This document shows positions 5,755-64,000 of a stretch of 64,000 nucleotides of DNA, piece after piece. Every line of letters begins with the position of its first letter. Position 1 is the first letter of the stretch. Under the pieces are notes generated by a model. That model was not told where the DNA came from. It did no database searches and worked only from the letters and a program-made list of their open reading frames with translations. This DNA is from Flavobacterium sp. Lineage in GTDB: Bacteria > Bacteroidota > Bacteroidia > Flavobacteriales > Flavobacteriaceae. The position numbers and the translations under genes are program-made. The DNA lies in the NCBI GenBank assembly GCA_021740105.1, contig JAIPAM010000001.1:196239-260238 (forward strand), given 5' to 3'.

Positions 5755-7362
5755 ATGAAAAAAATAACCCTCGTTTTATTTTGCTTAATTGGCAATTTCG
5801 TTTTTTCACATACCATCAATTATGAAAATGTTGTATTGAGACATTGGTCTATCGAAAAGCAACACCAATTTATTGATGGAACTTTTATGATATATAAAAA
5901 TGGTACCGTATTTATTGAAGATGCCAATAATAAAATTTCTAAAATTCCCTTTTCAGATTTATCAAATGAAGATCAAAAATTTGTAACAAGCAAAAACAGT
6001 TGGGTAAAAAATTTGAATACTATTACACCTGAAAAAAAGGAAAGTACTCAAAATATTTTTGATTTTAAATTTTGGATAATCCTTTTCTCATTAATCGCTT
6101 TTGGATATTATATCTACACTATTTCTGATAGAAAAAAACTAAAATTTCTCTATCCTGTTTTGTTTCTAGGGATACTTACTTCTTTGTATGGTTTTACAAA
6201 AAAAGCAATATCTACAACCGATCCTGCATTTCTTACTTCGGCATTTTCACAATTTGCTTCTACAGTTAGTACCACTTATGATGCCAATTTTTTCTATGTG
6301 AATTCAACTGGAATTCCAAACCACACGATGATGGTAGGAATTTCAAATCGAGGATGGCAACAACAAGTTCCAACTTCAAAATGCTATATCAATTCAAATC
6401 ATTGGACGATTCCTTTAAATCCAGTAATTGCTGCAACACCTGTTCCTGTTTCTTCAACACATTTCTTGAAAGGCGCTATTGCGATGGCAGTTAATGGAGT
6501 TCCCATTTTTAATTATCATACTAATACTGGAGTGGATAGTTTTCTTGACGGACAACTCGATAACTATGGAGGACATTGTGGAAGAGGCGACGATTATCAT
6601 TACCACACCGCGCCATTGCATTTAATCACTTTAGGTCAAGCATCAGCTACTTTACCCATTGCTTTTGGACTCGACGGATACGCTGTTTATGGAAATTTAG
6701 AACCTAATGGAACTGCAATGACAACACTTGATGCCAATCATGGGCATTATGGAACCAACGGAGTTTATCATTATCACGGTACCGCCGCTGCTCCTTATAT
6801 GATCGGAAATATGGTTGGAGTGGTTACGGAAGATGCCAATTTGCAAATTATTCCTCAACCACAAGGAACGGCAATTAGAACTGAAAATTGGACGCCCCTG
6901 GCTGGTGCCTTGATTACTTCTTGCGTTGCCAATGCTAACAATGGGTTCAACACCGCCTATTCTTTAAACGGCGTTTCAGGTTATGCAACAAATTATACTG
7001 CAACTGTGGCTGGATTATACACTTTTCAATATGTTACTCCTACAGGGACTACCTCAACGAATTATAACGGCCCGGCTCAATGTACAGTCCCAAATTTAGG
7101 TTTTGACGAAATAGCCTATTTAGACAATGCATTTACTATTTATCCAAATCCAACAAGCGATGTTTTAAATATTAAATTACGAAAAGACATCAATGAAAAT
7201 GATATTCAAGGGGTTTCAATTTATGATTTAAAAGGACGTTTAGTATCTAAAACCCCCGATTTCAATTCAAATATTGACATAAAAAATCTCTCTAAAGGAT
7301 CTTATGTTGTGAAAATTGAATTTTTGAATTACCTGATTTCTAAAAAAATAATGGTGAAATAA
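5755..7362 (+). CDS. YHYH-domain protein with N-terminal SHD1-like domain, TM hairpin and T9SS type-A CTD
   Basis: Two YHYH motifs (DDYHYH, GVYHYH); GxAxNGVP and FGLDGYAVYG YHYH-family motifs; IYPNP...KKIMVK CTD. Confidence 0.85.
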   Translation: MKKITLVLFCLIGNFVFSHTINYENVVLRHWSIEKQHQFIDGTFMIYKNGTVFIEDANNKISKIPFSDLSNEDQKFVTSKNSWVKNLNTITPEKKESTQNIFDFKFWIILFSLIAFGYYIYTISDRKKLKFLYPVLFLGILTSLYGFTKKAISTTDPAFLTSAFSQFASTVSTTYDANFFYVNSTGIPNHTMMVGISNRGWQQQVPTSKCYINSNHWTIPLNPVIAATPVPVSSTHFLKGAIAMAVNGVPIFNYHTNTGVDSFLDGQLDNYGGHCGRGDDYHYHTAPLHLITLGQASATLPIAFGLDGYAVYGNLEPNGTAMTTLDANHGHYGTNGVYHYHGTAAAPYMIGNMVGVVTEDANLQIIPQPQGTAIRTENWTPLAGALITSCVANANNGFNTAYSLNGVSGYATNYTATVAGLYTFQYVTPTGTTSTNYNGPAQCTVPNLGFDEIAYLDNAFTIYPNPTSDVLNIKLRKDINENDIQGVSIYDLKGRLVSKTPDFNSNIDIKNLSKGSYVVKIEFLNYLISKKIMVK

Positions 7363-7385
7363 TAATTTCATTTTAAACCCATTTT

Positions 7386-8606
7386 ATGACAAAATACTTC
7401 TATTTATTGTTATTATTTCCAATTTTTTCATGTGCGCAATACCTTGGAACAGGATCGATTACTCAAGGTTTAGCAACAGCCACGTCAGGTAATCTTTATT
7501 CTTGTACAAATGGTAGAATTGCAGCTTTAGGTACTATTACTGCTACCGATAATACCGTTTGGACTGTTCCTGCAGTAACCAATTTTACCAATAATTTATT
7601 TCCATTTGCGTCCAATTTATACAATGAATGTACTGGTAATTTATATGCAAATTCAACTGCAGCTTTAGCGGCTTTGAATGGTTCCGATATTGTAACTGTT
7701 GATACCAATGGAGAAATAATTACGGCTTATATTTTTGCTGATAATTATTTTGAAATGTACATCAATGGCGTTCCTGTAGGAAAAGATAATGTTCCATTTA
7801 CTCAATTTAATTCCAATATTGTCCGATTCAAAGTCAATCGCCCGTTTACAATTTCGATGCTTTTAGTGGATTGGGAAGAGCGTTTAGGTGTTGGAGGAGA
7901 AACCAATGGAGGCTTTAATTATCACTGTGGTGATGGTGGTATGGTAGCTGTTTTCAAGGATGCTAGTAACACTATAATTGCAAAAACAGGAAGCGATTGG
8001 AAAGCACAAACTTTTTATACTGCACCTATAATGAATTTATCGTGCCCTACTGAAAGTGGTACTTCACGCCTTTCGGCAAATTGTAGCACGGCAGATTCTA
8101 ATGCTGGAACAGCCTATTATGGATTGCATTGGGCAAGACCCTCAAACTGGACATTGGCAACGTTTGATGATTCTTCTTGGCCTGCCGCTACCACGTTTAC
8201 AAACGCAACAATAGGCGTTGATAATAAACCAGCTTATACTAATTTTACCACTATTTTTGATGATGTTTCCAATGATGCTCAGTTTATTTGGAGTAAAAAT
8301 GTAATTTTAGACAACGAAGTTATTGTTAGAAAAACAGTTTCTTCTTTGTCGGTTTATGATTTTGAAAACGTAAATTCAAAAATTAATATTTATCCGAATC
8401 CAACAAAAAATCAATTTAATTTAGATTATGATGCTGCTGTTTTTCCAATAAATAAAATTCAAATAATAAATACTTTTGGCGAATTACTATTTGAAACAAA
8501 TACCATTTCAAATTCCATTAAATTTGGTACAATTCCATCGGGAATGTATTTTGTAAAAATTATTTCAGACAAATTTGAGATAACAAAAAAATTAATAGTT
8601 GAATAA
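7386..8606 (+). CDS. T9SS type-A cargo protein with an uncharacterised beta-sandwich (lectin/CBM-like) domain
   Basis: Signal peptide; ADNYFEMYING...SDWK...FDDSSWPAA...AQFIW pattern; IYPNP...TKKLIVE CTD. Confidence 0.7.
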   Translation: MTKYFYLLLLFPIFSCAQYLGTGSITQGLATATSGNLYSCTNGRIAALGTITATDNTVWTVPAVTNFTNNLFPFASNLYNECTGNLYANSTAALAALNGSDIVTVDTNGEIITAYIFADNYFEMYINGVPVGKDNVPFTQFNSNIVRFKVNRPFTISMLLVDWEERLGVGGETNGGFNYHCGDGGMVAVFKDASNTIIAKTGSDWKAQTFYTAPIMNLSCPTESGTSRLSANCSTADSNAGTAYYGLHWARPSNWTLATFDDSSWPAATTFTNATIGVDNKPAYTNFTTIFDDVSNDAQFIWSKNVILDNEVIVRKTVSSLSVYDFENVNSKINIYPNPTKNQFNLDYDAAVFPINKIQIINTFGELLFETNTISNSIKFGTIPSGMYFVKIISDKFEITKKLIVE

Positions 8607-8619
8607 ATTGCCATTTGAA

Positions 8620-9828
8620 ATGAAAAAAAAATTACTTTTTGGATTCCTACTTCTAAATTCAACTTTGTTTTTTGGTCAAAGTGTTTCTAAAACTATTCGG
8701 TTATTGCCCGACACTGGACAAACCCAAAGCTACACTACTACATTTGGCGAAGACCATGATTATTTGATAAACACGCCTTCTTATACCAATAATAACAATG
8801 GAACAATTACCGATAATGTTACCGGATTGATGTGGCAACAAGTTGATGGTGGTGAAATGACTTTTGAAAATGCTATCACATATTGTAATAATTTGTCTTT
8901 AGGCGGTTTTTCAGGCTGGCGATTGCCAACTCCAACAGAAGCCTATAGCATTCTGAACCATCAAAGTTCGAACCCAGCAATCAATACCACTTTTTTTACT
9001 TTGACTACAGCGGAATATTGGTGGACAAGTGTTTTTGAAAATAATTCTACCACGAAAGTTTGGTGTACAAATTCAGGCGGTGGAATTGGAAATCATCCAA
9101 AAGCAGAAACCATAAGTGCCGGTGGAACAAAAAAATTCCATGCTAGAGCAGTTCGAAATATAACCACTCCAACAACCATTACCAATCATTTTACAGATAA
9201 TGGGGATGGGACTATAACCGATAATTTGACCCAGTTGGTTTGGCAAAAAATTCCGAATGCAAATATATTCACTTGGGAACAAGCAATAAGTTATGCAGAA
9301 GGATTAACTATAGGTTCAATTTCTGATTGGCGATTGCCGAACATCAAAGAATTGCAATCGATAAACAATGAATTGGCAACAAACCCGTCTGTTTTTGCAC
9401 CTTATTTTTCAAGTGTTGGCGTTCATAATTATTGGTCTTCAACTACATTGCCAAACCAAAATTTAAGTGCTTGGTATTGGAGTACCGCTTTTGGAATTAC
9501 AACTTACAGTGCTAAAACAGGTTCAAATTATGTACTTTGTGTAAGAGGAAATCCTTCACTTTCTTTAAACACTATTGAACCTCATACATCAATAAAAATT
9601 CATCCAAATCCATCTTCTCATTTTGTTTCCATTTCATTTCCACGCTACACAACTTCAGCAAAAATTGAAATCGTCGATACAATGGGAAAAATAGTTCTAA
9701 GCAAAGAAATTGTCGTCAATTCTAACGAATACTTATTAGACACGGAAGGAATTTCAGGAGGAATCTATTATTTATCAATCATAAATGGAAATAATAAGAA
9801 TACGTATAAAATCATAATGAAAAAATAA
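8620..9828 (+). CDS. Tandem DUF1566 (Lcl C-terminal) protein with T9SS type-A CTD
   Basis: Two copies of the NxDGTITDNxTxLxWQ...WRLPxxxE pattern; IHPNP...YKIIMKK CTD; ATG 8620 gives a signal peptide. Confidence 0.87.
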   Translation: MKKKLLFGFLLLNSTLFFGQSVSKTIRLLPDTGQTQSYTTTFGEDHDYLINTPSYTNNNNGTITDNVTGLMWQQVDGGEMTFENAITYCNNLSLGGFSGWRLPTPTEAYSILNHQSSNPAINTTFFTLTTAEYWWTSVFENNSTTKVWCTNSGGGIGNHPKAETISAGGTKKFHARAVRNITTPTTITNHFTDNGDGTITDNLTQLVWQKIPNANIFTWEQAISYAEGLTIGSISDWRLPNIKELQSINNELATNPSVFAPYFSSVGVHNYWSSTTLPNQNLSAWYWSTAFGITTYSAKTGSNYVLCVRGNPSLSLNTIEPHTSIKIHPNPSSHFVSISFPRYTTSAKIEIVDTMGKIVLSKEIVVNSNEYLLDTEGISGGIYYLSIINGNNKNTYKIIMKK

Positions 9829-11426
9829 TGAAAAAAATAGTTGTACTATTATTTCTATTGGTAATTAGTCATTCCAATTTTGCGCAACAACACAATGTGA
9901 TTTTTGTTATAGCAGATGATATTGGAGCCGACTATTGTGGATTTTATTCCAATTATACACAGTATAGCCCCATTCTTGATACCATCGCAATGCCAAATGT
10001 TAGGCGTTTATTAAGCAGAGGTGTTCGATTTAAAAATGCGTGGTCAAATCCAGTGTGCTCGCCTACTCGTGCTGGAATGATGACGGGAAGATATAGCTTT
10101 AGAACAGGAGTTGGAAATGCCATTGGAGGTGGCACTACATCGGTATTGAATACCAATGAAATTAGTATTCCACAATTATTAAATGTGTATTCTCCAAATG
10201 GAATTTCAAAAGCATTAATAGGAAAATGGCATTTACAATTGCCGTCGGTCGCTAATTATAGCAATCCAAATATAATGGGGTTTAACCATTACGAAGGAAG
10301 TCTATCGGGTGGAATTAACGATTATTTCGATTGGCAAAAAATTACAAATGGAGTCGCCTCTACCAATACAAATTACGCTACAACAGAGGTGGTAAACAAT
10401 TCTATTTCTTGGATTTCAGCACAGCCAACTACAAAGCCGTTCTTTCTTTGGATGGCATTCAATGCGCCACACAGTCCCTTTCATTTACCACCAGCTGGAA
10501 TGTATTCGGATACCACTTTGAGTGGAACAGCGGCAGATATTTCGGCTAATCCAAAAAAATATTATAAAGCTATGGTTCAAGCCATGGATCGTGAACTTGG
10601 TCGTTTATTTGATTATTTACAAAGTAGTGGAAAATGGGCAAATACAGACATCGTTTTTATTGGGGATAATGGAGATGATCCTGCAATTAATCAAGGTTCT
10701 GGAAGTGCAAAAGGGAGTGTATATCAGAAAGGGGTAAGTGTGCCTTTTATTATTTCAGGACCAACAGTTGTAAATCCAAACAGAAGTAGTGATGCGCTTG
10801 TTAACACCGTCGATTTATTTGCAACGGCATTAGAATTATTTGGATATTCCAACTGGCAATCGCAAATTCCTTCAAATAGACCAGTGGATTCAAAAAGCTT
10901 AATGCCGATATTATTAAATACTGCAACAGCTGTTAGGCCATGGGCATTTACAGAGGTTTTCAAAGATACTCCTACATCGGGAGATGGGAAAGCAATGAGA
11001 AATACGGGGTATAAATTGATAAAATTTGACGATGGTACAGAAAAATTTTTCAATTTAACGACGAATCCAACAGAAACGATAAATCAAAATTTACTTCTAG
11101 GAACTTTAACTACTACACAAATTTCCAATTACAATTATTTGTGTACCGAAATGACAAATTTAGTTGGAGGAACTTCGTTTTGTAACGCTTTAGGAGTTAA
11201 TGATGTAGGGCGACAAATTAATGTAAGTCCAAACCCATTTCATAATTTTATCTCCATAAAATCGGGTTCAGGAAATGAGAATTACAAACTGTATTCTAAT
11301 TTAGGCCAACTTATTTTCGAAGGAAAAGATATTGAAAATCAAGATTTTTCTTCGTTAGCAAATGGAATTTATTTCTTAAAAATAATGGATAAATCAACTT
11401 CAACTATCAAACTGATTAAAGAATAA
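9828..11426 (+). CDS. Cys-type (formylglycine) sulfatase with T9SS type-A CTD
   Basis: IADD, CSPTRAGMMTG signature, GKWHL, PHSPFH, GDNG; VSPNP...IKLIKE CTD; start overlaps the upstream stop (TAATG). Confidence 0.92.
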   Translation: MKKIVVLLFLLVISHSNFAQQHNVIFVIADDIGADYCGFYSNYTQYSPILDTIAMPNVRRLLSRGVRFKNAWSNPVCSPTRAGMMTGRYSFRTGVGNAIGGGTTSVLNTNEISIPQLLNVYSPNGISKALIGKWHLQLPSVANYSNPNIMGFNHYEGSLSGGINDYFDWQKITNGVASTNTNYATTEVVNNSISWISAQPTTKPFFLWMAFNAPHSPFHLPPAGMYSDTTLSGTAADISANPKKYYKAMVQAMDRELGRLFDYLQSSGKWANTDIVFIGDNGDDPAINQGSGSAKGSVYQKGVSVPFIISGPTVVNPNRSSDALVNTVDLFATALELFGYSNWQSQIPSNRPVDSKSLMPILLNTATAVRPWAFTEVFKDTPTSGDGKAMRNTGYKLIKFDDGTEKFFNLTTNPTETINQNLLLGTLTTTQISNYNYLCTEMTNLVGGTSFCNALGVNDVGRQINVSPNPFHNFISIKSGSGNENYKLYSNLGQLIFEGKDIENQDFSSLANGIYFLKIMDKSTSTIKLIKE

Positions 11427-11999
11427 ATGACCAGTTTAGAATCCCTTTATACTTATTTTCAACTAGGTTTCACGCATGTTATTCCTTTAGGTTTTGATCA
11501 TATACTTTTTATATTAACTTTGTTTTTTTTGAGTTCCAATATAAAAACGATGTTAATTCAATGTTCCGTTTTTACACTCGCACATAGTTTTTCATTGGCT
11601 TTAGCTGCATCAGGATTGATCATTCCTAATGCTAATATCGTAGAGCCTTTAATTGCTTTATCCATTTTATTTACGGCAATTGAAAACATCGTTCACAACA
11701 AAATAAACCCTTGGCGATTGGTTCTAATATTTGGCTTCGGATTAATCCACGGATTAGGATTTGCGAAAGCGCTAAATGAAATTGGAATGCCAAAAAATCA
11801 ATTTTTTAGTTCGCTTTTGTCATTTAATATTGGAGTTGAAATGGGTCAGGTTACCATAATAGTAGCGGCCTATTTTATAATCAGCAAGTGGTTTAGTAAA
11901 AAGATTTGGTATAAAGAAAGGGTTGTTTATCCAATTTCTTCGGTTATTGCCTGTATCGCTTTATATTGGGTAATAGAAAGAATTTTATTTCCAAATTAG
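11427..11999 (+). CDS. HupE/UreJ family membrane protein
   Basis: His motifs GFTH...GFDHILF, FTLAHS, FGLIHGLGFA, FNIGVE; hydrophobic; ATG directly after the sulfatase stop. Confidence 0.88.
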   Translation: MTSLESLYTYFQLGFTHVIPLGFDHILFILTLFFLSSNIKTMLIQCSVFTLAHSFSLALAASGLIIPNANIVEPLIALSILFTAIENIVHNKINPWRLVLIFGFGLIHGLGFAKALNEIGMPKNQFFSSLLSFNIGVEMGQVTIIVAAYFIISKWFSKKIWYKERVVYPISSVIACIALYWVIERILFPN

Positions 12000-53939: not shown

Positions 53940-54512
53940 TTATCGGGTTGGAATGGCTCTTGAAGTATCTAACATTTGGATCAAATCGGATTCTCCTTCT
54001 TCTTTAGGAATGGTGCTTTTTCTCACAATTTCATCCAATTGATTTTGAAGTGATAGCAATTGAACGTTTATTTCTATAACTAAAGCAATTACTTTATTAT
54101 CAGGAATTTCATCTAAATTGATGAAAAGATTCAGCGAATTTATTTTAGAAATCAAAACTGCAATTCGGCTTTTTACTTCCGGTTTATCGTAGGCTATTGG
54201 AATATTGTTGTTTAATTCTGCAACTTTCTTTGAAAGCACTTTGGCTTTTTTCTGAAATGCTCCAATGGTGCTCTTCGGTTTGCTATTCAATTCCAATAAA
54301 AAAACACGCCATTCTGGCCACATGTCAAATAATCCTTGTGACGCAGGGTTTATCGGATTGGCATTAAAAGTCCATCCTTTATTGATGTTATTAAAAATCG
54401 TCTCTTTCTTTTTAGCGTCTTTAGCGTTCTCTATTAGGCGCTGTTCCTTGTTATTTTGACAAGAAAAAAATAGTAGAAGCACTATTAAAAGAGCCGTATT
54501 TTGCAGTTTCAT
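53940..54512 (-). CDS. Hypothetical lipoprotein
   Basis: Lipobox LLFFSC after ATG 54512; helical; upstream of mfd. Confidence 0.72.
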   Translation of the reverse strand: MKLQNTALLIVLLLFFSCQNNKEQRLIENAKDAKKKETIFNNINKGWTFNANPINPASQGLFDMWPEWRVFLLELNSKPKSTIGAFQKKAKVLSKKVAELNNNIPIAYDKPEVKSRIAVLISKINSLNLFINLDEIPDNKVIALVIEINVQLLSLQNQLDEIVRKSTIPKEEGESDLIQMLDTSRAIPTR

Positions 54513-54632
54513 CTTTATAATTATTTGACACAAAGTTACAAAGGTAATTCAAGAAATACGAATTTTGAATAATTCTCATGTAAAATGATTTTAAAATTCG
54601 AAATTGTTATATTTGTGGTCTAAATAGATCAA

Positions 54633-55574
54633 ATGACTACAAAAATTCTAATTATCGGAGCTTGCGGACAAATCGGTACCGAGCTAACTCAAAAATTACG
54701 GGAGATTTATGGTGTAGAAAACGTAATTGCTTCGGATATTAGAAAATTAAATATTGATGTGGTGAATTCCGGACCATTTGAAGTTCTCAATGCATTGGAT
54801 TTTAATCAAATTCAACATCTTGTTGAAGTGCACCAAATTGATGAAGTTTATTTGATGGCCGCCTTATTATCGGCAACAGCTGAAAAAAACCCGGCATTTG
54901 CGTGGGACTTAAATATGAATTCCCTTTTTCACGTTTTGAATTTGGCGAAAGCTGGAAAAATTAAAAAAGTATTCTGGCCTTCAAGTATTGCCGTTTTTGG
55001 ACCTACCACCCCAAGAGAAAATACACCTCAATATACCATTATGGAACCAAGTACGGTTTACGGAATTAGCAAACAAACGGGAGAAAGATGGTGCGAATAT
55101 TACCACAATGTCTATGGTGTTGACGTGAGAAGTATTCGATATCCTGGCTTAATTAGTTGGTCGTCGCCTCCTGGGGGTGGAACTACCGATTATGCAATTG
55201 ATATATTTCACAAAGCTATTGCAAAGAAAAAATACGACTGCTTTTTATCTTCAGAAACCAAAATGCCAATGATGTACATGGACGATGCGATTGCAGCAAC
55301 TATCCAAATTATGCAAAGTCCAAAAGAGCAAGTTAAAATCCGTTCTTCTTATAATTTAGCGGCAATGAGTTTTACACCAACAGAAATTGCTAAAGAAATT
55401 AAGAAACACATCCCAGAATTTGAGATTACTTATCACCCTGATTTCCGTCAGAAAATTGCTGATAGTTGGCCAGCAAGTATTGATGATAGCGCTGCTAGGG
55501 AAGATTGGAATTGGAAACATCAATTTGATATTTCGAGCATGACAAAAGACATGCTGGACCATTTGAAAAAATAA
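54633..55574 (+). CDS. tdh: L-threonine 3-dehydrogenase (SDR/UDP-Gal epimerase type)
   Basis: GACGQIG, LSATAE, WPSSIAVFG, YGISK, GGGTTDY; closely resembles the Flavobacterium SDR-type ThrDH as recalled; -7 box TATATTTG at 54608-54615. Confidence 0.88.
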   Translation: MTTKILIIGACGQIGTELTQKLREIYGVENVIASDIRKLNIDVVNSGPFEVLNALDFNQIQHLVEVHQIDEVYLMAALLSATAEKNPAFAWDLNMNSLFHVLNLAKAGKIKKVFWPSSIAVFGPTTPRENTPQYTIMEPSTVYGISKQTGERWCEYYHNVYGVDVRSIRYPGLISWSSPPGGGTTDYAIDIFHKAIAKKKYDCFLSSETKMPMMYMDDAIAATIQIMQSPKEQVKIRSSYNLAAMSFTPTEIAKEIKKHIPEFEITYHPDFRQKIADSWPASIDDSAAREDWNWKHQFDISSMTKDMLDHLKK

Positions 55575-55580
55575 GGGAAT

Positions 55581-55790
55581 TTATTTTTCGCTTACATATT
55601 CCATAATATCTCCAGGCTGACAATCTAAAACTTTACAGATCATTTCTAAAGTTGAAAAACGAATTGCTCTCGCTTTACCTGTTTTTAAAATTGACAAATT
55701 TGCCGTTGTGATCCCAATTGAATCCGCTAATTCATTGGAACGCATTTTTCGTTTGGCGAGCATCACATCTACATTTATAATAATTGCCAT
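55581..55790 (-). CDS. Cro/CI-type HTH regulator (YozG-like)
   Basis: ELADSIGITTANLSILKTGKARAIRFSTL..IC..L.CQPGD. Confidence 0.9.
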   Translation of the reverse strand: MAIIINVDVMLAKRKMRSNELADSIGITTANLSILKTGKARAIRFSTLEMICKVLDCQPGDIMEYVSEK

Positions 55791-55792
55791 AG

Positions 55793-56299
55793 TTATATTG
55801 TTAGTTCGTTATCTTCTTTAATACGTTTACCAATGATAAAAACTTCGGATAATACTTTGAAAAATAACCCAAGCGCCATTATATATAAAAAGGGACCGAA
55901 ACCTAAATTAACTGAAATAGTACTTTTAGAAAATGCACCTAATAAATCTGAAATTAAATATATACTTGCCGAAAGCATAACCAAATTTCCAATTTTATCT
56001 AATAATTGGTAGGTATTCACCTCAAAAATTATTTTTTTTCTGAAATTATTCAAAAGTGATTTGAAATTATAAAGTGCAAAAAGTATAATTCCAAAATTTA
56101 CTATGCTCAATACCAATCCTATTTTTCCGTAAAGAGTTGTTGTGTAAATATTTATTCCGGAAATATTTATTGGAATATCAATTGGTTCATTGGAAAACAA
56201 AGCAAAGCTAATAAACACGATTAATAAAGGAAATGCGATTATAGACATAATCCAAAGGTAATCTACAATGGTTTTTAAAAATACTAATTTTCTCATCAT
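55793..56299 (-). CDS. DUF2975 family membrane protein
   Basis: 4 TM helices, IFE...L..IG, C-terminal G..IKEDNELTI; coupled to the HTH gene. Confidence 0.88.
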   Translation of the reverse strand: MMRKLVFLKTIVDYLWIMSIIAFPLLIVFISFALFSNEPIDIPINISGINIYTTTLYGKIGLVLSIVNFGIILFALYNFKSLLNNFRKKIIFEVNTYQLLDKIGNLVMLSASIYLISDLLGAFSKSTISVNLGFGPFLYIMALGLFFKVLSEVFIIGKRIKEDNELTI

Positions 56300-56319
56300 T
56301 TTTAATTTTAAAGTTGTTA

Positions 56320-56354
56320 CAAATATAAATTAATTATTGATAAACAATAATTAA
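56320..56354 (-). promoter_or_regulatory. -7 box (TATATTTG, 56320-56327) and 10-5-10 palindromic operator of the DUF2975-HTH operon
   Basis: TTAATTATTG-ATAAA-CAATAATTAA at 56330-56354. Confidence 0.6.
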
Positions 56355-56634
56355 ATACTAAAAAACAATATTTTTTTACAAATAAGAACAAAATAAAGTT
56401 GCTTACTTTTATATGTTTTAAATTAATACCAATAAAAATTGGTTTTTAACAAGTATAGAAGGTAATTCAATTTGGCAAAATTACTTTTGCTTAAATCCTT
56501 TAACTTTGACATTTATAAATTAAATTTGTGGCAATTTATTATTTTAACAATTTAATCTTGAAATTTAATATAAAGACACTCTCAATATAAAAATGCATTA
56601 CAGTAAATTAAATTGAAGTAAAAAAACAATATAA

Positions 56635-58806
56635 ATGGAAAAAGAAAGAAATAAAATCAAACTGAAAGTTAAAGAAAAAAAAATATCTGGTTTTGATAGT
56701 TATTTATCAATAGCTTTAAAAGTTATTGGTATTCTTTTTTTAGGGATAGCCGGATATTATTTTATCGATGCTCAAGGTGAAGATTTAATTACTAAGATCA
56801 TTTCTTTTTTTGCTGCTCCTGAAGTCATAGTGCCAATAGGAGAAACTCCCTTTCCTTGGAAACCTATCTCCTATTTATTAACAAGTCACATTATAGGAAT
56901 TTCTGGATTAATTTGGGCAATTTATTATTCCAGAAACCATCTTAATAAAGCATACCCTTTTACACTTAGTATTGTTATTGCAATGACTTTTGTTAATACC
57001 TTAATGTATTTTTATTGGTATTTCACAATATGGGCTTTACCTTATTATAACTATTATATTGCTAGTGCTTTTTTAGCGGTTACTTTAATTCCATCTTTTA
57101 TATGCTATAAAATATATAAACGGAAATCATTACTTTCCGCAATATTGATATACTTCCATATTTTCATGTTAGAGATGCTTGCTGATTCTTTAAATGAAAA
57201 CAGGTATTTGTATGTTTTTTCAGCGATTTCAATTTTCACACTTGTTTTATTTTATATCTCTAAGCGTGACAAACCCTATTTAAGTTTATTTTTAAATGGA
57301 ATTTTCGCCTATGGCTTTTTAATGATATTAGTACTTAAAAAATTTGTTTTTAACACTAATGCCACTTTTTTAAGCTTATTTTTTATTGTTAGTTTTATAT
57401 ATTTTGCCCTTTTTTATGGAATCACATTGTATTATAGCATCAAAGAAAATAAGAAGATTTTTTCAATAATAAATGTTCTAAATACAGTTGTCTATATAGT
57501 TCTAAATGGATACGTATTATCCAGATTTGGGTATTCAAATTATTTAGGGTGTATTCTTTTTATTGCGTTTGTAGTGCATCTATCGTCAATAATTATTTAT
57601 TATAAATATTATTTTCAAAAAGGAAAATTAATTACATATGAAATAGCATCATTAGTATTGTTTTCTGCCTCAGTATCTCTAATTAGAAATGAGTATTTTA
57701 TAAGTCTGTTTTTTGGAATCATATCTTTACTATTCTTTGGTTATGCAAAAGTTTATAAAAACAAAAATTTCGTTAATATTGTTATTATCGCATTAATTAC
57801 TTTATCAGCAAATTTTGTTTATTTAACAATAAATAGTTATTTCATATTATTAAATTCTCCAAGCTTTGGAATAAATTCAATTATCCAAAAAGTTTTCCTA
57901 AACAGTTTAATCATTTTGCTTTTTATATTTCTCTTGCGAATAATCGTAATAAAGGAAACACAAGAGGAGGAGCAAAATTGGTTTAATAGAAGGAGATATA
58001 TTCGTTATTTAAATATTCTATCAGCTATAACGAGTTTTGTTTTTATAGAATGGTTATGTTTTTTCTTACTTTATTCTACTGTATATGATTTTGCATTTTC
58101 AAATAAAATTTTAATAGTTATTGGTAGCCTTTTTGCCTTATTTATTTTAAAAAACGACAATTATTTTTCAAAAAAAATCAAGAATTGGATTTACTTATCG
58201 GTTTATTTTTTCGCAATATTTGTTATCTCACAAATCCATCTAAATTTTTCATTTACATCAATTGAATATATTGTTTCTAATAATCTCACTTTATTGGAAG
58301 TGGTGATTCATTATATTGAATTGTTTTTAGCCCTATCCATTTTTGCAATATCATTTACAAGATTCTATTATCAAAACATTGGTAAAAGAAAAAAAATGTT
58401 GCAATTTTTTGTTTTTACCCTTTACTTCGTCATTACCTTCGTCATTTGCAAAGAATATGATTACATTTCAGTTTTAACTAGTATTTCAAGTTCTAAAATA
58501 AGCGGTGATGATTTTGAAATGATTCTAAGATCAAACCAATTTTTGCCCTATTCTATGATAATATTGACTTGCGCTTCACTATTATTGATCGTAGGGATTA
58601 AATTAAAAAGCCTTTTTTTACGAAGTGTCTCAATAATTATAATAGGAGCAGATTTAGTAAAAATATTTTTTATTGAATTTATTGAAATTTCAGATAATTA
58701 CAAAGGCGGTGTGTTTATTGTAATTGGCGCTTTATTGTTATTACTTTCCTGGTTTTATAACAAAACAAAATACAGAAGAAAAAGAAGGATTTCAAGAAAA
58801 AGTTAA
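56635..58806 (+). CDS. Large polytopic membrane protein, DUF2339-like C-terminus
   Basis: About 20 hydrophobic segments; C-terminal LRSVS...LVKIFF.E......KGGVFIVIG.LLLLLSWFY. Confidence 0.65.
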   Translation: MEKERNKIKLKVKEKKISGFDSYLSIALKVIGILFLGIAGYYFIDAQGEDLITKIISFFAAPEVIVPIGETPFPWKPISYLLTSHIIGISGLIWAIYYSRNHLNKAYPFTLSIVIAMTFVNTLMYFYWYFTIWALPYYNYYIASAFLAVTLIPSFICYKIYKRKSLLSAILIYFHIFMLEMLADSLNENRYLYVFSAISIFTLVLFYISKRDKPYLSLFLNGIFAYGFLMILVLKKFVFNTNATFLSLFFIVSFIYFALFYGITLYYSIKENKKIFSIINVLNTVVYIVLNGYVLSRFGYSNYLGCILFIAFVVHLSSIIIYYKYYFQKGKLITYEIASLVLFSASVSLIRNEYFISLFFGIISLLFFGYAKVYKNKNFVNIVIIALITLSANFVYLTINSYFILLNSPSFGINSIIQKVFLNSLIILLFIFLLRIIVIKETQEEEQNWFNRRRYIRYLNILSAITSFVFIEWLCFFLLYSTVYDFAFSNKILIVIGSLFALFILKNDNYFSKKIKNWIYLSVYFFAIFVISQIHLNFSFTSIEYIVSNNLTLLEVVIHYIELFLALSIFAISFTRFYYQNIGKRKKMLQFFVFTLYFVITFVICKEYDYISVLTSISSSKISGDDFEMILRSNQFLPYSMIILTCASLLLIVGIKLKSLFLRSVSIIIIGADLVKIFFIEFIEISDNYKGGVFIVIGALLLLLSWFYNKTKYRRKRRISRKS

Positions 58807-58853
58807 TTAAATAATTATTGATTCGTTTCGAGTAAATTTGAATTTTTCTATTT

Positions 58854-60008
58854 ATGAAGTTTCCAAAAAAACTTGCCTTTAAAATTGAATCCAGAGAGCA
58901 AAATAACTCTTTGCGAAAATTGGCATTTTCCAACCATTTAATAGATTTTGCTTCCAATGATTATATCGGATTTGCGAAATCGGAAACCATTTTCAATGAA
59001 ACGCATTCCTATTTAATAAATAAAAATATAATTCAAAATGGCGCGACTGGATCCCGATTATTATCAGGAAATCATGCTGTTTATGAAGGCGCAGAAAACT
59101 ACATTTCAAAATTTCATCAATCGGAAAGCGCTTTACTATTTAACTCCGGTTACGATGCTAATGTCGGTTTTTTTAGTGCCGTTCCGCAACGCAATGACGT
59201 TATTCTATTCGATGAACTAGCACACGCGTCCATTCGGGACGGAATTCAACTATCCAATGCAAAATCCTACAAATTTCAACACAACGATTTCGAAGATTTA
59301 GAACGAATAATTCTTAAACTATCAACCAGCAACCAGCAACCAGCAACCATTTTTGTAGTTACTGAAAGTGTTTTTTCTATGGATGGCGATACACCAAACC
59401 TAGAAGAACTAGTTACCCTTAGCAATAAATACAACTGTTATTTAGTTGTAGATGAAGCCCACGCTTTAGGAGTTTTTGGTGATCATGGTGAAGGATTAGT
59501 CCAAATGTTAGGTTTACAAGACGAGGTTTTTGCAAGAATTATGACTTTCGGAAAAGGGCTAGGTTGCCATGGCGCAGCCATTTTAGGATCCCAAAAACTA
59601 ATAGATTATTTAGTCAATTTCGCAAGGAGTTTTATATATACCACGGGGCTTTCGCCTCATTCAATAGCAACCATTCTAATTGCTTATCAGCATTTGAAAA
59701 ATGAAAAAGTAGCGGTTCAAAAACTTCGTGAAAACATTATTCATTTCAATCAAGAAAAAAAACAATTGGGTTTAAACCCTCTTTTTGTGCGAAGTAAATC
59801 AGCGATTCAAAGTGCGATTATCCCTGGAAATCAAAAAGTGAAAAATAGTGCGAGCCTACTTCAAGAAAAAGGATTCGATGTAAAAGCCATTCTTTCCCCT
59901 ACTGTTCCTGAAGGGCAAGAACGCCTTCGGTTTTGTTTACACAGCTATAACTCGAAAGAAGAAATCTCAGAAGTGTTGCAATTTCTTGCCACTTTATTAT
60001 TTAAATAA
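58854..60008 (+). CDS. bioF: 8-amino-7-oxononanoate synthase
   Basis: FASNDYIG, GSRLLSG, SGYDAN, HASIRDG, ESVFSMDGD, DEAH, TFGKG (PLP Lys), RLRF; heads bioD-bioA. Confidence 0.92.
   Translation: MKFPKKLAFKIESREQNNSLRKLAFSNHLIDFASNDYIGFAKSETIFNETHSYLINKNIIQNGATGSRLLSGNHAVYEGAENYISKFHQSESALLFNSGYDANVGFFSAVPQRNDVILFDELAHASIRDGIQLSNAKSYKFQHNDFEDLERIILKLSTSNQQPATIFVVTESVFSMDGDTPNLEELVTLSNKYNCYLVVDEAHALGVFGDHGEGLVQMLGLQDEVFARIMTFGKGLGCHGAAILGSQKLIDYLVNFARSFIYTTGLSPHSIATILIAYQHLKNEKVAVQKLRENIIHFNQEKKQLGLNPLFVRSKSAIQSAIIPGNQKVKNSASLLQEKGFDVKAILSPTVPEGQERLRFCLHSYNSKEEISEVLQFLATLLFK
59323..59350 (+). repeat. Intragenic heptamer tandem repeat (CAACCAG x3 + CAACCAT) in bioF
   Basis: Read directly; encodes STSNQQPAT. 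Confidence 0.85.
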
Positions 60009-60021
60009 ATATTAACATCAA

Positions 60022-60066
60022 TTTCCTTACTGTCTTTGCAATTTCTTTGCGAACTTTGCAGTTAAA
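60022..60066. repeat. CwTTGCr four-unit intergenic repeat, copy 1 (bioF-bioD)
   Basis: CCTTACT-GT-CTTTGCA-ATTT-CTTTGCG-AA-CTTTGCA-GTTAAA. Confidence 0.55.
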
Positions 60067-60074
60067 GAATAACT

Positions 60075-60698
60075 ATGAAATTATTTATAACAGGAATATC
60101 AACCGATGTAGGAAAAACAATCGCTTCTGCAATTATTACAGAAGCGCTTGTCGCCGATTATTGGAAGCCGGTTCAAGCAGGAGATTTAGACCATTCTGAT
60201 AGTCATAAAATTCTAAGTTATATTTCAAATGATCAATCGGTTATTCACGAAAATAGCTACAAATTAAATACACCCGCAAGTCCGCATTTAGCAGCCGAAA
60301 TAGATGGTATAACAATCGATTTAAAAAATATTAAAGAACCGATAACTAAAAATCATTTGGTGGTGGAAGGCGCAGGTGGCGTTTTGGTTCCTTTAAATAC
60401 TAACGATTTTGTTATCGACTTGGTTCAACCTGACTACAAAATTATAATTGTTTCCAGACATTATTTAGGGAGTATCAACCATACGCTTTTAACTATTGAA
60501 GCAATAAAAAACAGAGGTTTAACCATCGCAGGAATTATTTTTAATGGCAATGAAAATAAAGCTACCGAATCTTTAATTTTAAATTATTCGAAACTAAAAT
60601 TCATAGGCAGAATTAACGATGAACCGTATTTTGATAAAAATGTAATTGCTGAATATGCCGATTTATTTAGAGATAATTTAATGGCAATTGAATCGTAA
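60075..60698 (+). CDS. bioD: Dethiobiotin synthase
   Basis: TDVGKT P-loop, YWKPVQAG, SPHLAA, VEGAGG, LGSINHT. Confidence 0.96.
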   Translation: MKLFITGISTDVGKTIASAIITEALVADYWKPVQAGDLDHSDSHKILSYISNDQSVIHENSYKLNTPASPHLAAEIDGITIDLKNIKEPITKNHLVVEGAGGVLVPLNTNDFVIDLVQPDYKIIIVSRHYLGSINHTLLTIEAIKNRGLTIAGIIFNGNENKATESLILNYSKLKFIGRINDEPYFDKNVIAEYADLFRDNLMAIES

Positions 60699-60711
60699 AT
60701 AAAATAATTAA

Positions 60712-61983
60712 ATGGATTTAACCGATAGAGACGGGTTACATATTTGGCATCCTTACACCCAACATAAAACTTCAAAACCACCAATTGCAATTGTAAAAGG
60801 GAAAGGAGCTTTGCTTTGGGATGATTTCAATAATGAATATATTGACGCAATCGCTTCTTGGTGGGTAAATCCGTTTGGACATTCCAATACCATTATCGCT
60901 GACGCTATTTATAAGCAACTAACCACTTTAGAACACGTTTTGTTTGGTGGATTTACGCATGAACCTGCGGTGGTTTTATCTGAAAAATTGATTAAAATCT
61001 TACCTAAAAATCAAAATAAAATTTTCTTTTCCGATAATGGATCAACGGCTGTTGAAGTAGCGATTAAAGTGGCATTGCAGTATTTTTTCAATAAAGGAGA
61101 AAAGAAAACTACCCTGATTGCCTTTGAAAATGCCTTCCACGGAGACACCTTTGCTGCGATGGCAGCCAGTGGAATTTCATTTTACACACAAGCTTTCGAA
61201 GGTATGTTTATAGACGTAGTTCGTATTCCTGTTCCGATAAAAGGGGAAGAAGAAACTAGTTTTCATGCATTAGCTCAGGCCATAAAAAACTATAATTGTG
61301 CGGCATTTATTTTTGAACCTTTGGTTTTGGGAGCTGCAGGAATGGTGATGTACAATCCGGAAGAACTGGATAAATTAATCGGGATTTGTAAAGAAAATAA
61401 AATACTTACCATCGCCGATGAAGTGATGACTGGCTTTGGTAAAACTGGAAAAACGTTTGCTTGCGATTATCTTGTTGGGCAACCCGATATGATGTGCTTG
61501 TCGAAAGCTTTAACGGGCGGAACCATTCCAATGGCAATTACAACATTTACTGAAGAATTATTTGAAGCCTTTTACAGTGATGACATCAACAAGGCGTTGT
61601 TTCACGGACATACATTTACTGGAAATCCAACGGGATGCGCTGCAGCATTGGCGAGTTTGGCACTCTTGGATACCGAAGAAATGCAAGCCAATATTGCCAG
61701 AGTAAATCAAAGCCATTTGGCCTTTGAGAAGCACATCAAAGAGCATCCTAAAGTAACAACAACCAGAGTTTTAGGAGTTATTTTTGCATTGGAAATAAAA
61801 ACTGAATCCCAAGCCAGTTATTACGGAACTTTACGAAACAAACTTTACGATTTTTTCATTGAAAACGGAGTGATTTTGAGGCCCGTGGGAAACATAGTCT
61901 ATATTTTGCCGCCTTATATTATTGAGGAAGACCAACTCCAAAAAATATATACTGTAGTTGAAAACGCTTTAAATATAGTATAA
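60712..61983 (+). CDS. bioA: Adenosylmethionine--8-amino-7-oxononanoate transaminase
   Basis: HIWHPYTQ, SWWV, SDNGSTAVEVA, FHGDT, ADEVMTGFG, LSKALTGG, HGHTFTGNP, LRPVG. Confidence 0.96.
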   Translation: MDLTDRDGLHIWHPYTQHKTSKPPIAIVKGKGALLWDDFNNEYIDAIASWWVNPFGHSNTIIADAIYKQLTTLEHVLFGGFTHEPAVVLSEKLIKILPKNQNKIFFSDNGSTAVEVAIKVALQYFFNKGEKKTTLIAFENAFHGDTFAAMAASGISFYTQAFEGMFIDVVRIPVPIKGEEETSFHALAQAIKNYNCAAFIFEPLVLGAAGMVMYNPEELDKLIGICKENKILTIADEVMTGFGKTGKTFACDYLVGQPDMMCLSKALTGGTIPMAITTFTEELFEAFYSDDINKALFHGHTFTGNPTGCAAALASLALLDTEEMQANIARVNQSHLAFEKHIKEHPKVTTTRVLGVIFALEIKTESQASYYGTLRNKLYDFFIENGVILRPVGNIVYILPPYIIEEDQLQKIYTVVENALNIV

Positions 61984-61999
61984 GATAAAAGATCTCTTT

Positions 62000-62042
62000 C
62001 ATTGCGTACATTGCGAAAAACTTTGCGACCTTTGCCAATAAA
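62000..62042. repeat. CwTTGCr four-unit intergenic repeat, copy 2 (bioA-KAS)
   Basis: CATTGCG-TA-CATTGCG-AAAAA-CTTTGCG-AC-CTTTGCC-AATAAA. Confidence 0.55.
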
Positions 62043-62060
62043 TTTTAATAAATAATCACT

Positions 62061-63215
62061 TTGCCAACAACGATTTCTATAACCGCCATCGCATCCATTT
62101 CTGGATTAGGAAATGATCAAAATGTCATTTGGCAAAATTATTTGAATGACAATCACTGCTTTATTGAAACTACTGTTGGTAATCAAAACACTAATATTGC
62201 CCCTTTAAATTCCGATTCTAAAAAACTAGTAAGCGAATTAAAAAAATCAGATTCTAAATACAAATCACTTGATAATTCTGTATTATTTGCAATAGCTACT
62301 TCAAGAAAAGCGATTGAAAAAGCGGGTTGGCAGAAAAGTGACACTTTTGGAATTAACATCGGATCATCACGTGGTGCAACAGAATTATTTGAAAAACACC
62401 ACTTGGATTTCATCCAATCTGGGAAAGTAGTAACTTTAGCCTCGCCAACTACGACGCTCGGAAATATCTCTTCTTGGGTTTCACATGATTTACAAAGTCA
62501 AGGACCAGAAATTTCACATTCTATTACCTGCTCAACGGCATTACATGCCTTATTAAATGGAATTGCATGGTTAAAATCTGGTATGGCTGATAAATTTTTG
62601 GTTGGCGGTAGCGAAGCTCCATTAACCGATTTTACGATTGCTCAAATGCGAGCTTTAAAAATATATTCTAAAAATAGTGCCGAATTCCCATGTCGCGCCT
62701 CAGACTTAAATAAGAAACAAAACTCACTTGTATTGGGTGAAGGGGCTGCAGTATGCTGTATTGAAATTGGAAGAACCGACAAAACTATCGCAGTTATTGA
62801 AGGAATTGGGTACGCTACTGAAATTTTAGAACACAATGTTTCTGTTTCTACAGAAGCAACTTGCTTTCAAAAATCGATGAAAATGGCTTTAGGAGCTACT
62901 GAATTATCAGAGGTCGATGCGATTGTAATGCACGCTCCTGGAACGATTAAAGGGGACTTATCAGAATACAAAGCAATTCAAAAAATATTTGGAGCCGAAC
63001 TTCCTTTGTTAACTACCAATAAATGGAAAATCGGTCACACCTTTGGAGCCTCCGGAATGTTGAGCATTGAAATGGCCATTTTGATGTTACAAAATCAAAC
63101 CTTTATCGGAGTCCCATTTGCGGAAGCAAAAACCGAAAAGAAACCATTGAAAAAAATCATGGTAAATGCCGTAGGTTTTGGCGGAAATGCGGTAAGTGTT
63201 TTGTTGAGTTTGTAA
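62061..63215 (+). CDS. Beta-ketoacyl synthase (FabB/FabF-like, Cys-His-His) following the biotin genes
   Basis: TCSTALHA (Cys), MHAPGT (His1), KIGHTFGASG (His2), GEGA, GFGG; TTG start. Confidence 0.85.
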   Translation: MPTTISITAIASISGLGNDQNVIWQNYLNDNHCFIETTVGNQNTNIAPLNSDSKKLVSELKKSDSKYKSLDNSVLFAIATSRKAIEKAGWQKSDTFGINIGSSRGATELFEKHHLDFIQSGKVVTLASPTTTLGNISSWVSHDLQSQGPEISHSITCSTALHALLNGIAWLKSGMADKFLVGGSEAPLTDFTIAQMRALKIYSKNSAEFPCRASDLNKKQNSLVLGEGAAVCCIEIGRTDKTIAVIEGIGYATEILEHNVSVSTEATCFQKSMKMALGATELSEVDAIVMHAPGTIKGDLSEYKAIQKIFGAELPLLTTNKWKIGHTFGASGMLSIEMAILMLQNQTFIGVPFAEAKTEKKPLKKIMVNAVGFGGNAVSVLLSL

Positions 63216-63259
63216 ATTTTTAGATTAAAGTCATAAAGTCAAATTTCGAATAATTTCAA

Positions 63260-63294
63260 TAACTTATAACTTACAACCTACAACTTATAACTTA
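63260..63294. repeat. Heptamer tandem array yAACyTA x5
   Basis: TAACTTA-TAACTTA-CAACCTA-CAACTTA-TAACTTA, overlapping the recX stop. Confidence 0.75.
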
Positions 63295-63770
63295 CTTTCC
63301 AAGTCTTTCACTTTTTCATAAACCATATTGCTTTCAAATCCTTTTCGGAGTAAGAAATCACAGAATTTTTTTCGCTTTTTTAGACTATCATTTTCTTTCA
63401 TTGTTTCCCAATGGCGATCCGCAATAAAATGAAAATTGGTATAATATTCTTCTTCCGATATTTCTTTAAGAGCTGTTTTTATATTGTAGGAAGAGATATT
63501 TCGGAATTTCAATTCGTTTACAATTCTAATATTTCCCCAATATTTAATTCGGTGTTTTCCTCTAGCAAAACTGCAAGCAAAACGCTCTTCGTTTAGAAAA
63601 TTTTGATCGATAAGGTGTACTATTATCAAATCGATAACTTGAGGAATCATGTTCATTCCTCGAAGTTTTTCGACCACTTCTTTATGACAACGCTCTTGGT
63701 AGGCGCAGTAATTCTCTAACTTGGATTGAGCTTCCTGAATGGAATAGGTTTTATGAGAATTATTTTCCAA
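63285..63770 (-). CDS. recX: Regulatory protein RecX
   Basis: YCAYQERCHKEV..KL, FLNEERFA, KYWG..RI..EL, FLLRKGFE. Confidence 0.92.
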   Translation of the reverse strand: MENNSHKTYSIQEAQSKLENYCAYQERCHKEVVEKLRGMNMIPQVIDLIIVHLIDQNFLNEERFACSFARGKHRIKYWGNIRIVNELKFRNISSYNIKTALKEISEEEYYTNFHFIADRHWETMKENDSLKKRKKFCDFLLRKGFESNMVYEKVKDLESKL

Positions 63771-63807
63771 AATTTATTGATTGTCTATTGAGAATAGAAA
63801 CAAAAAA

Positions 63808-63999
63808 CTAGGCATTTGTTTTCCCTGAAGCCTCTAAATTTTTTTCGATTGTATGTCCTGGTCTTGACCATTTTGGCTTTTCTCCTAACGATTGGAACTG
63901 AGAATCTTCAGCTTCAACGGTAGTTGGTTGAGAAACTTTAACAAATGGTTTTTGAGGAATTAATCCTAAGGTTTCAAACATTTTCATGTCCTCATTTAC
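63808..63999 (-). CDS. bioB: Biotin synthase, 3' end only (truncated by the window edge)
   Basis: Open frame VNEDMKMFETLGLIPQKPFVKVSQPTTVEAEDSQFQSLGEKPKWSRPGHTIEKNLEASGKTNA-stop, resembling flavobacterial BioB C-termini as recalled; adjacent to the bio cluster. Confidence 0.75.
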   Translation of the reverse strand, partial: VNEDMKMFETLGLIPQKPFVKVSQPTTVEAEDSQFQSLGEKPKWSRPGHTIEKNLEASGKTNA

Positions 64000-64000
64000 A

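Follow-up and report, generated by a model that had tools for sequence, protein, structure and literature searches.

Recent literature distinguishes four early routes to the pimeloyl precursor of biotin: BioC-BioH, BioI-BioW, BioZ and BioE (for BioE, PMC12704756). BioZ is the 3-oxopimeloyl-acyl carrier protein (ACP) synthase of alpha-proteobacteria and belongs to the FabH-type class of 3-ketoacyl-ACP synthases, KAS III (PMC7645780, PMC8024396, PMC12625853); the free 3-oxopimeloyl-ACP that it makes is completed by the housekeeping type II fatty acid synthase (FAS II) of E. coli (PMC7645780). The BioE-BioL route of the Weeksellaceae depends on a ferritin-like diiron oxygenase (PMC12704756, PMC12915131) and was published in December 2025 (PMC12704756). 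Another solution is seen in Desulfovibrio vulgaris, for which Rodionov et al. 2004 (PMC545781) predicted an extended biotin cluster that spans DVU2558-DVU2565 and includes the FabF-like ketosynthase DVU2563. The requirement of this cluster for biotin was established by random barcode transposon-site sequencing (RB-TnSeq; Trotter et al. 2023, PMC10102598) in an organism that has neither bioC nor bioH, and condensation with an undecarboxylated malonyl primer was proposed for it (PMC10102598). In aquatic environments, flavobacteria are reported to be primary producers of biotin (PMC9561691). We have analyzed a stretch of 64,000 nucleotides from Flavobacterium sp. (assembly GCA_021740105.1, contig JAIPAM010000001.1, positions 196,239 to 260,238 of the forward strand), referred to below as the window, in which a gene for a KAS I/II-type ketosynthase follows bioF, bioD and bioA. 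The original prediction held that this enzyme is a functional analogue of BioZ, or that it elongates dicarboxylic acyl chains, and that the pathway would be an undescribed one.

It is very probable that the ketosynthase has a role in biotin synthesis. The comparative and sequence data point further to a dedicated enzyme that would elongate acyl chains whose omega-carboxylate is free, as far as 3-oxopimeloyl-ACP, and so replace both BioC and BioH. None of the four published pimelate routes was found in this genome, which is represented by an assembly of 2.19 Mb that is 97.9% complete; in the Flavobacteriaceae the pimelate arm of the pathway is a gap. The best match to the BioC model (TIGR02072) scored 56 bits against a cut-off of 185. 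There was no match in the genome to BioG (PF04301) and no separate search for BioH was made, since BioH would have no role in the absence of BioC. Nor did the genome contain a match to BioW (PF03744) or any cytochrome P450 that might serve as BioI, by either PF00067 or a regular expression for the heme motif. BioE was absent from the genome by both tblastn and profile hidden Markov model (HMM) searches. The BioE query was taken from three genomes of the same order that show the published layout, with bioL divergent from bioE-bioF-bioD; at these source loci a MocR-type regulator is divergent from a 207 amino acid protein with EEHRH and EEEGH motifs, and bioF and bioD follow. Each family search for a route marker gave matches in its control genomes (Bacillus subtilis for BioW and for BioI).

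The condensing enzymes and carrier proteins of the genome were also catalogued. A second KAS I/II gene (C1:612445-613698) is a true FabF, with 588 bits against a cut-off of 494, and the lone ACP gene of the genome adjoins it, 350 kb from the ketosynthase; there is no ACP gene beside the ketosynthase and no second one genome-wide. Three KAS III genes are present, none of them near bio genes, and two score above the FabH cut-offs. Two of the three were compared with solved structures and are closer to FabH (281 and 145 bits) than to BioZ (159 and 64 bits, respectively); the remaining gene, assigned by its score above the FabH cut-offs, adjoins accB/accC. The divergent KAS III (G000:C12:110162-111220, minus strand), which reaches 211 bits against an FabH subfamily cut-off of 249, lies in a neighbourhood of glycosyltransferase and flippase genes and is not BioZ-like when set against the solved BioZ. 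The original prediction had remarked on the lack of an adjacent ACP and on the lack of bioC, bioG, bioW, bioI and bioZ in the window. Both remarks hold, and the second extends to the whole genome with BioE added to the list, so that no complete BioC-BioH/G route or other known route is found there.

The phyletic pattern of the ketosynthase was determined in a sample of one genome per genus from 151 genera of the family, with orthologs accepted at E <= 1e-30. Both the ketosynthase and BioA occur in 90 genera, BioA only in 2, the ketosynthase only in none, and neither in 59; about 60% of the genera of the family carry bioFDAB. The co-occurrence is highly significant by Fisher's test (p = 4e-40), although this value is uncorrected for phylogeny and overstates the independence of the genera because of their shared ancestry. 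Linkage to bio genes in other genomes, on which the original prediction depended, is thus the rule, with the ketosynthase present in 90 of the 92 BioA-positive genera. The bio gene order around it is non-random: bioA is immediately 5' of the ketosynthase and on the same strand in 77 of the 90 genera. The remaining 13 genera have kept both genes even though the two are separated by more than 3 kb or lie on separate contigs.

For one of the two BioA-only genomes the assembly is fragmentary. The other, G005, is the single genome among the 151 with a BioC above cut-off, and it lacks the ketosynthase. Its BioA is 38% identical to the BioA described here and best matches the model PRK07986 (645 bits), and its biotin cluster has the order bioB-bioA-bioF-(213 aa)-bioC-bioD (L039, G005:C1:1910000-1929900, positions 6349-11775). 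The 213 amino acid protein occupies the position of BioG and has no NCBIfam match. The cluster was probably acquired horizontally. The only BioC of the family is therefore in a BioA-bearing genome without the ketosynthase, and the two genes are mutually exclusive within the family. No BioE match was found in any of the 151 genomes. Two genomes of the same genus, G486 (locus L057) and G201 (locus L058), retain a relic bioF (63-64% identical) at a syntenic site, with recX a few kb away in G201, as it is near the bio genes in the window. Since bioD, bioA and the ketosynthase have all been lost together in these two genomes, the sites are decayed biotin loci.

We also looked for a second gene that consistently accompanies the ketosynthase and found none across 30 or more family loci and the loci of four other families. 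The genes that border or split the cluster in other genera, among them those for NfeD/flotillin-like, SET-domain and ATP-grasp proteins, a signal peptidase and small membrane proteins, were considered as partners and rejected as unrelated and unconserved.

In a second sample, of 400 genomes from the phylum, 202 genomes have BioA and 25 have the ketosynthase. Among the members of the family in this sample, 21 have both the ketosynthase and BioA and 8 have neither. Only four matches were found outside the family; they come from four other Bacteroidota families, are 34-49% identical to the query, and all adjoin bioA or bioF. No genome in either sample (151 and 400 genomes) has the ketosynthase without BioA. 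In one distant representative the genes form a bioF-bioD-bioA-ketosynthase-bioB operon that is translationally coupled through overlaps of 4 nt. The unlinked cases, the joint losses, the complementarity with BioC and the recurrence across families are separate lines of evidence. A side observation concerns a bio-linked ketosynthase of a high-G+C member of the Bacteroidota (L045, G482:C1, positions 7745-9322), which has a long low-complexity insert of LPHD/LPQP repeats after the first helix; representative P0250 has a similar insert.

The ketosynthase carries both ketoacyl synthase domains (PF00109, 80 bits; PF02801, 55 bits; cut-off 20.8) and fails the FabF equivalog TIGR03150, with 137 bits against a cut-off of 494. 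It belongs to the KAS I/II superfamily and is remote from every curated family; its named relatives come from Flavobacterium species and from metagenome-assembled genomes of freshwater Bacteroidota. An AlphaFold2 model was obtained with a predicted local distance difference test (pLDDT) of 83 and a predicted template modelling score (pTM) of 0.88. In a Foldseek search with this model the top structural matches were FabF structures (template modelling score, TM, 0.85; 20-23% identity), and over all comparisons the identity to FabF entries of the Protein Data Bank (PDB) is only about 20-25%. When aligned with the FabF of the same genome and with PDB FabF, the protein has a complete set of catalytic residues: the triad of Cys157, His291 and His326, the lysine Lys321 and the gating phenylalanine Phe373. 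The length of 384 amino acids, the Cys-His-His triad and the altered motifs HAPGT and NAVGFGG (residues 369-375) are as originally described. HAPGT stands where FabF has HGTST, with Pro293 in place of the first threonine. The motif SPTTTLG follows a 5-residue deletion at the position of the dimer-interface loop PFF(V/I)P of FabF, and about 16 residues are missing near the C-terminus relative to FabF. The score against the equivalog model, the gate residues discussed below and the presence of a true FabF elsewhere in the genome led us to reject the identification of the protein as FabF. A profile search of the whole library found more than 150 clusters (at 50% identity) above 349 bits. The 136 representatives that were aligned are 31-64% identical to the query and share 15 invariant columns, which include Arg104, Cys157, His291, Lys321, His326 and Phe373 in all 136.

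One of these columns is Arg104. The GSGIGG motif of FabF aligns with GSSRGA of the ketosynthase, for both the FabF of this genome and PDB FabF, and a comparison of PDB entries 4ls5 (wild-type Bacillus subtilis FabF) and 4ls6 (the I108F mutant) established which residue of that motif is Ile108. An arginine occupies the Ile108 position in 35 of 35 orthologs and in every one of the 136 representatives. At the Phe202 position Met196 is found in 34 of the 35 orthologs, and Gln195, just before it, in at least 90% of the representatives, so that the hydrophobic Ile108-Phe202 back gate of FabF is not kept and is replaced by Arg104 and Met196. In FabF this gate lies at about C7-C8 of the bound chain, and the I108F substitution restricts chain length; a glutaryl methyl ester on the active-site cysteine has the length of a C7 acid (PMC9006962). 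The position of the gate fits the chemistry of a putative short, carboxylated substrate. A basic residue in the pocket had been suggested as something to look for in a model of the enzyme, and Arg104 is a candidate for it, as placed by alignment. The simplest reason for an invariant arginine here would be a free carboxylate on the substrate, and we infer that Arg104 binds that carboxylate.

We therefore propose that a stand-alone ketosynthase of the KAS II type makes the pimeloyl moiety without the methyl-ester disguise provided by BioC and BioH. Arg104 at the back gate, with Gln195 and Met196 opposite, would close the acyl pocket and therefore leave room on Cys157 for a short acyl chain whose omega-carboxylate is free. 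The His-His-Lys-Phe machinery would then decarboxylate malonyl-ACP and condense it with the chain held on Cys157. In the core reaction a glutaryl thioester and malonyl-ACP would give 3-oxopimeloyl-ACP; we put the probability of this reaction at roughly 0.7. The housekeeping enzymes FabG, FabZ and enoyl reductase would convert 3-oxopimeloyl-ACP to pimeloyl-ACP, BioF would consume the product, and the single housekeeping AcpP would be the carrier throughout; these substrates and the use of the housekeeping reductive enzymes are, like the core reaction, inferred. In its self-sufficient form the scheme has two rounds with the same ketosynthase, in which an undecarboxylated malonyl-ACP primer and malonyl-ACP would first give 3-oxoglutaryl-ACP, and this, reduced to glutaryl-ACP, would enter the core reaction. 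One gene would then stand in place of BioC and BioH, and malonyl-ACP would be turned into pimeloyl-ACP without a chemical disguise, a dedicated carrier or input from amino acid catabolism. A malonyl-primed first round is favoured because KAS II enzymes use ACP substrates, a lone ACP is encoded in the genome, and the cluster has no linked transferase. Even so, we hold the complete two-round version only tentatively, at slightly worse than even odds.

The glutaryl unit could come instead from lysine or tryptophan catabolism. The enzyme would then act as BioZ does, in a single condensation of glutaryl-CoA, or of glutaryl-ACP derived from it, with malonyl-ACP to 3-oxopimeloyl-ACP, and no malonyl primer would be needed. 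An arginine at the depth of C7-C8 would best suit the carboxylate of a C5 chain, and the unstable free 3-oxoglutaryl intermediate would be bypassed. The supply is feasible, since the genome encodes a probable glutaryl-CoA dehydrogenase: an acyl-CoA dehydrogenase with the motif GLTEPNxGSDP, which we take to be typical of that enzyme, scores 280 bits against the glutaryl-CoA dehydrogenase model, although this is under the cut-off. Glutaryl-CoA is therefore probably a metabolite here. However, KAS I/II enzymes normally use acyl-ACP primers, not acyl-CoA, and neither a glutaryl-CoA:ACP transacylase nor a CaiB-type transferase is linked to the cluster. Biotin synthesis would moreover be tied to amino acid catabolism in a streamlined genome of 2.2 Mb. 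The BioZ pathway proves that such chemistry, with finishing by housekeeping FAS II, is workable, but glutaryl-ACP itself has not been seen in nature (PMC7645780). We consider a catabolic source of the glutaryl unit unlikely, if well worth keeping in mind.

The genomic evidence assigns the gene to biotin synthesis and not to one particular reaction, and it would also accommodate a differently disguised primer, another dicarboxylate, or an unlinked and unrecognised enzyme that supplies or releases the pimeloyl group. The genome does contain methyltransferases with weak matches to the BioC model (50-56 bits), and Desulfovibrio requires several extra proteins, one of them nitroreductase-like and encoded outside the cluster. 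Such chemistry is nevertheless improbable, given that no second gene is conserved beside the ketosynthase in the 30 or more family loci and the four other families, that there is one ACP, that BioC is above cut-off in none of the 90 ketosynthase-bearing genera, and that the invariant arginine would most simply signify a free carboxylate. A specialised fatty acid or polyketide ketosynthase that is merely carried along with the operon would account for the several distant arginine-bearing homologs that lie away from bio genes, and part of the co-occurrence could be explained by operon co-inheritance alone. Against this stand the lack of any ketosynthase without BioA in the two samples, its retention in the 13 genera in which bioA is distant or on another contig, its exact complementarity with BioC, its recurrence in bio clusters of other families at 34-49% identity, and the lack of another pimelate source in the genome. 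We regard an enzyme outside biotin synthesis as very improbable.

Several points tell against the free-carboxylate scheme that we prefer. The function assigned to the ketosynthase derives from comparative genomics and sequence, and both shared ancestry and operon co-inheritance inflate the statistics of co-occurrence. Some of the distant homologs that have the arginine (34-40% identity, from other lineages) are situated away from bio genes. The placement of Arg104 in the pocket follows from the sequence alignment to FabF, and Glu111 is likewise invariant and could pair with Arg104. The parts of the model with the lowest confidence, residues 125-133 (SPTTTLG) and 202-218, are stretches conserved in the family. 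As to the two-round version, the free carboxylate makes 3-oxoglutaryl-ACP a beta-keto acid, which is prone to decarboxylation. Finally, Desulfovibrio has its own ACP, reductase and dehydratases, which hints that housekeeping enzymes may handle C5 intermediates poorly.

The features of the locus are collected in Table 1. By open reading frame (ORF) listing and family scans the gene arrangement is the one originally reported: bioF, bioD, bioA and the ketosynthase are all on the same strand and bioB converges on them from beyond recX.

Table 1. Coordinates of the biotin locus, of key codons and motifs in the ketosynthase gene, and of distant arginine-bearing homologs (window positions unless a locus is named)
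Feature	Position	Strand	Remarks
bioF, 8-amino-7-oxononanoate synthase	58854-60008	+	top NCBIfam match TIGR00858, 348 bits, under the cut-off of 426; heads the conserved bioF-bioD-bioA-ketosynthase order
bioD, dethiobiotin synthase	60075-60698	+	TIGR00347, 129 bits (cut-off 83)
bioA, S-adenosylmethionine (SAM)-dependent 7-keto-8-aminopelargonate (KAPA) transaminase	60712-61983	+	TIGR00508, 538 bits (cut-off 405)
Biotin-cluster ketosynthase, 384 aa	62061-63215	+	TTG start; PF00109 and PF02801
Arg104 codon, motif GSSRGAT	62370-62372	+	position of FabF Ile108 (back gate), by alignment
Cys157 codon, catalytic	62529-62531	+	pairs with FabF active-site Cys; invariant
Gln195 and Met196 codons	62643-62648	+	Met196 replaces FabF Phe202, second half of back gate
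HAPGT motif, residues 291-295, catalytic His291	62931-62945	+	His291 in 136/136, Pro293 in at least 90%
NKWKIGH motif, catalytic Lys321 and His326	63021-63038	+	both invariant
Phe373 codon, gating Phe	63177-63179	+	equivalent of FabF Phe400; invariant
recX	63285-63770	-	
bioB, 3' end	63808-64000	-	full gene G000:C1:260046-261158, leaves the window; TIGR00433, 405 bits (cut-off 225)
Distant arginine-bearing member without adjacent bio genes	L147 5542-6705		
Distant arginine-bearing member without adjacent bio genes	L145 6001-7236		
Distant arginine-bearing member without adjacent bio genes	L151 1852-3015		

The gap between bioA and the ketosynthase is 77 nt, and a scan for sigma-70 promoters and terminators found no terminator in it. 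Within this spacer, positions 61995-62060 contain a series of similar short words, cATTGCGtaCATTGCGaaaaacTTTGCGaccTTTGCC, which could be a promoter or operator. Heptamer-like repeats, AACTTATAACTTACAACCTACAACTTATAACTTAC, are also present at 63240-63295, from the ketosynthase stop toward recX. The TTG at 62061 is the start codon of the ketosynthase, and TTG is also the first ORF start in several orthologs (for example at loci L010 and L021); no in-frame ATG is present near the conserved N-terminal strand. The TTG start may reflect deliberately low translation of the enzyme. Upstream of bioF, no conserved operator or palindrome was found across 54 Flavobacterium loci, where the box before the start codon is only the usual Bacteroidota promoter of the TAnnTTTG type, and an Rfam scan of window positions 54000-64000 gave no matches. 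Directly 5' of bioF is an ORF (56635-58806, plus strand) for a strongly hydrophobic, multi-pass membrane protein of 723 amino acids with no NCBIfam match. It lies within a stretch (55500-58800) of 23-26% G+C, compared with 33-37% on both flanks, which suggests an inserted or fast-evolving segment. Of the distant arginine-bearing members of the ketosynthase family, one overlaps a gene for an NAD-binding protein that is amine-oxidase/desaturase-like, and one is on a contig with Planctomycete-type PSD domains.

If the proposal is correct, the ketosynthase provides the main pimelate route of the Flavobacteriaceae and a further, distinct early pathway of biotin synthesis. It would correct metabolic models that score flavobacteria as lacking the early pathway, and it would account for the distribution of biotin prototrophy among flavobacteria. 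The enzyme would also be a lineage-specific target in those fish-pathogenic Flavobacterium that carry the gene, as BioE is for Weeksellaceae, and, as a natural ketosynthase with tolerance of free carboxylates, it would be of interest for the production of dicarboxylic acids. The suggestion that a KAS I/II enzyme serves as a BioZ analogue or as an elongator of dicarboxylic chains is supported by the absence of known routes and by the linkage to bio genes, and the function is predicted from these and from the sequence. The claim that the pathway is undescribed fares less evenly. For flavobacteria it stands, in that we found no description of a bio-linked KAS I/II enzyme in the full-text literature searched, where an earlier mention in passing is possible; more broadly it does not, because the FabF-like ketosynthase of the DVU2563 type in the Desulfovibrio biotin cluster already has genetic support (PMC10102598), so that a solution of this type is new only in part.

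The known systems resemble the flavobacterial locus in different respects. BioE-BioL fills the same gap, the lack of BioC/BioH, of BioI/BioW and of BioZ, in the sister family of the same order, and bioE adjoins bioF, but BioE is unrelated in both protein and chemistry, since it acts by oxidative cleavage of long acyl chains. In pyrrolidine ketide synthase (PYKS), a plant type III polyketide synthase (PKS), a 3-oxoglutaryl thioester is bound through its free carboxylate in a salt bridge to Arg134, which also serves as a gate that stops the chain from growing further (PMC6731253). This too is a pocket arginine in a condensing enzyme of the thiolase fold with a malonyl-derived 3-oxoglutaryl substrate. 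PYKS uses CoA substrates and acts in alkaloid biosynthesis, so that the analogy is one of mechanism, with homology limited to the fold. The Desulfovibrio cluster shares with the locus a KAS I/II-type ketosynthase among biotin genes in the absence of bioC and bioH, and its biochemistry is likewise unsolved. That cluster includes genes for an ACP of its own, for a FabG-like reductase and for two FabZ-like proteins, and the pathway also needs a nitroreductase-like protein, whereas the flavobacterial ketosynthase is the sole extra gene in a genome with one ACP (DVU2563 was compared by its description only). FabG-like and FabZ-like genes are absent beside the ketosynthase here, in 30 loci of the family and in the four other families, and the flavobacterial locus is not a full module of the Desulfovibrio type. 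Lastly, BioZ is also a condensing enzyme of the thiolase fold found in the bio clusters of genomes without other pimelate genes, and under our proposal the ketosynthase would share with it a primer with a free omega-carboxylate and a product finished by housekeeping FAS II. The KAS I/II domains and the Cys-His-His triad exclude its identification as BioZ, a KAS III enzyme that has a Cys-His-Asn triad and takes an acyl-CoA primer. The same glutaryl carboxylate that is held by two serines in BioZ would be held in the flavobacterial enzyme by an invariant arginine at the back gate.

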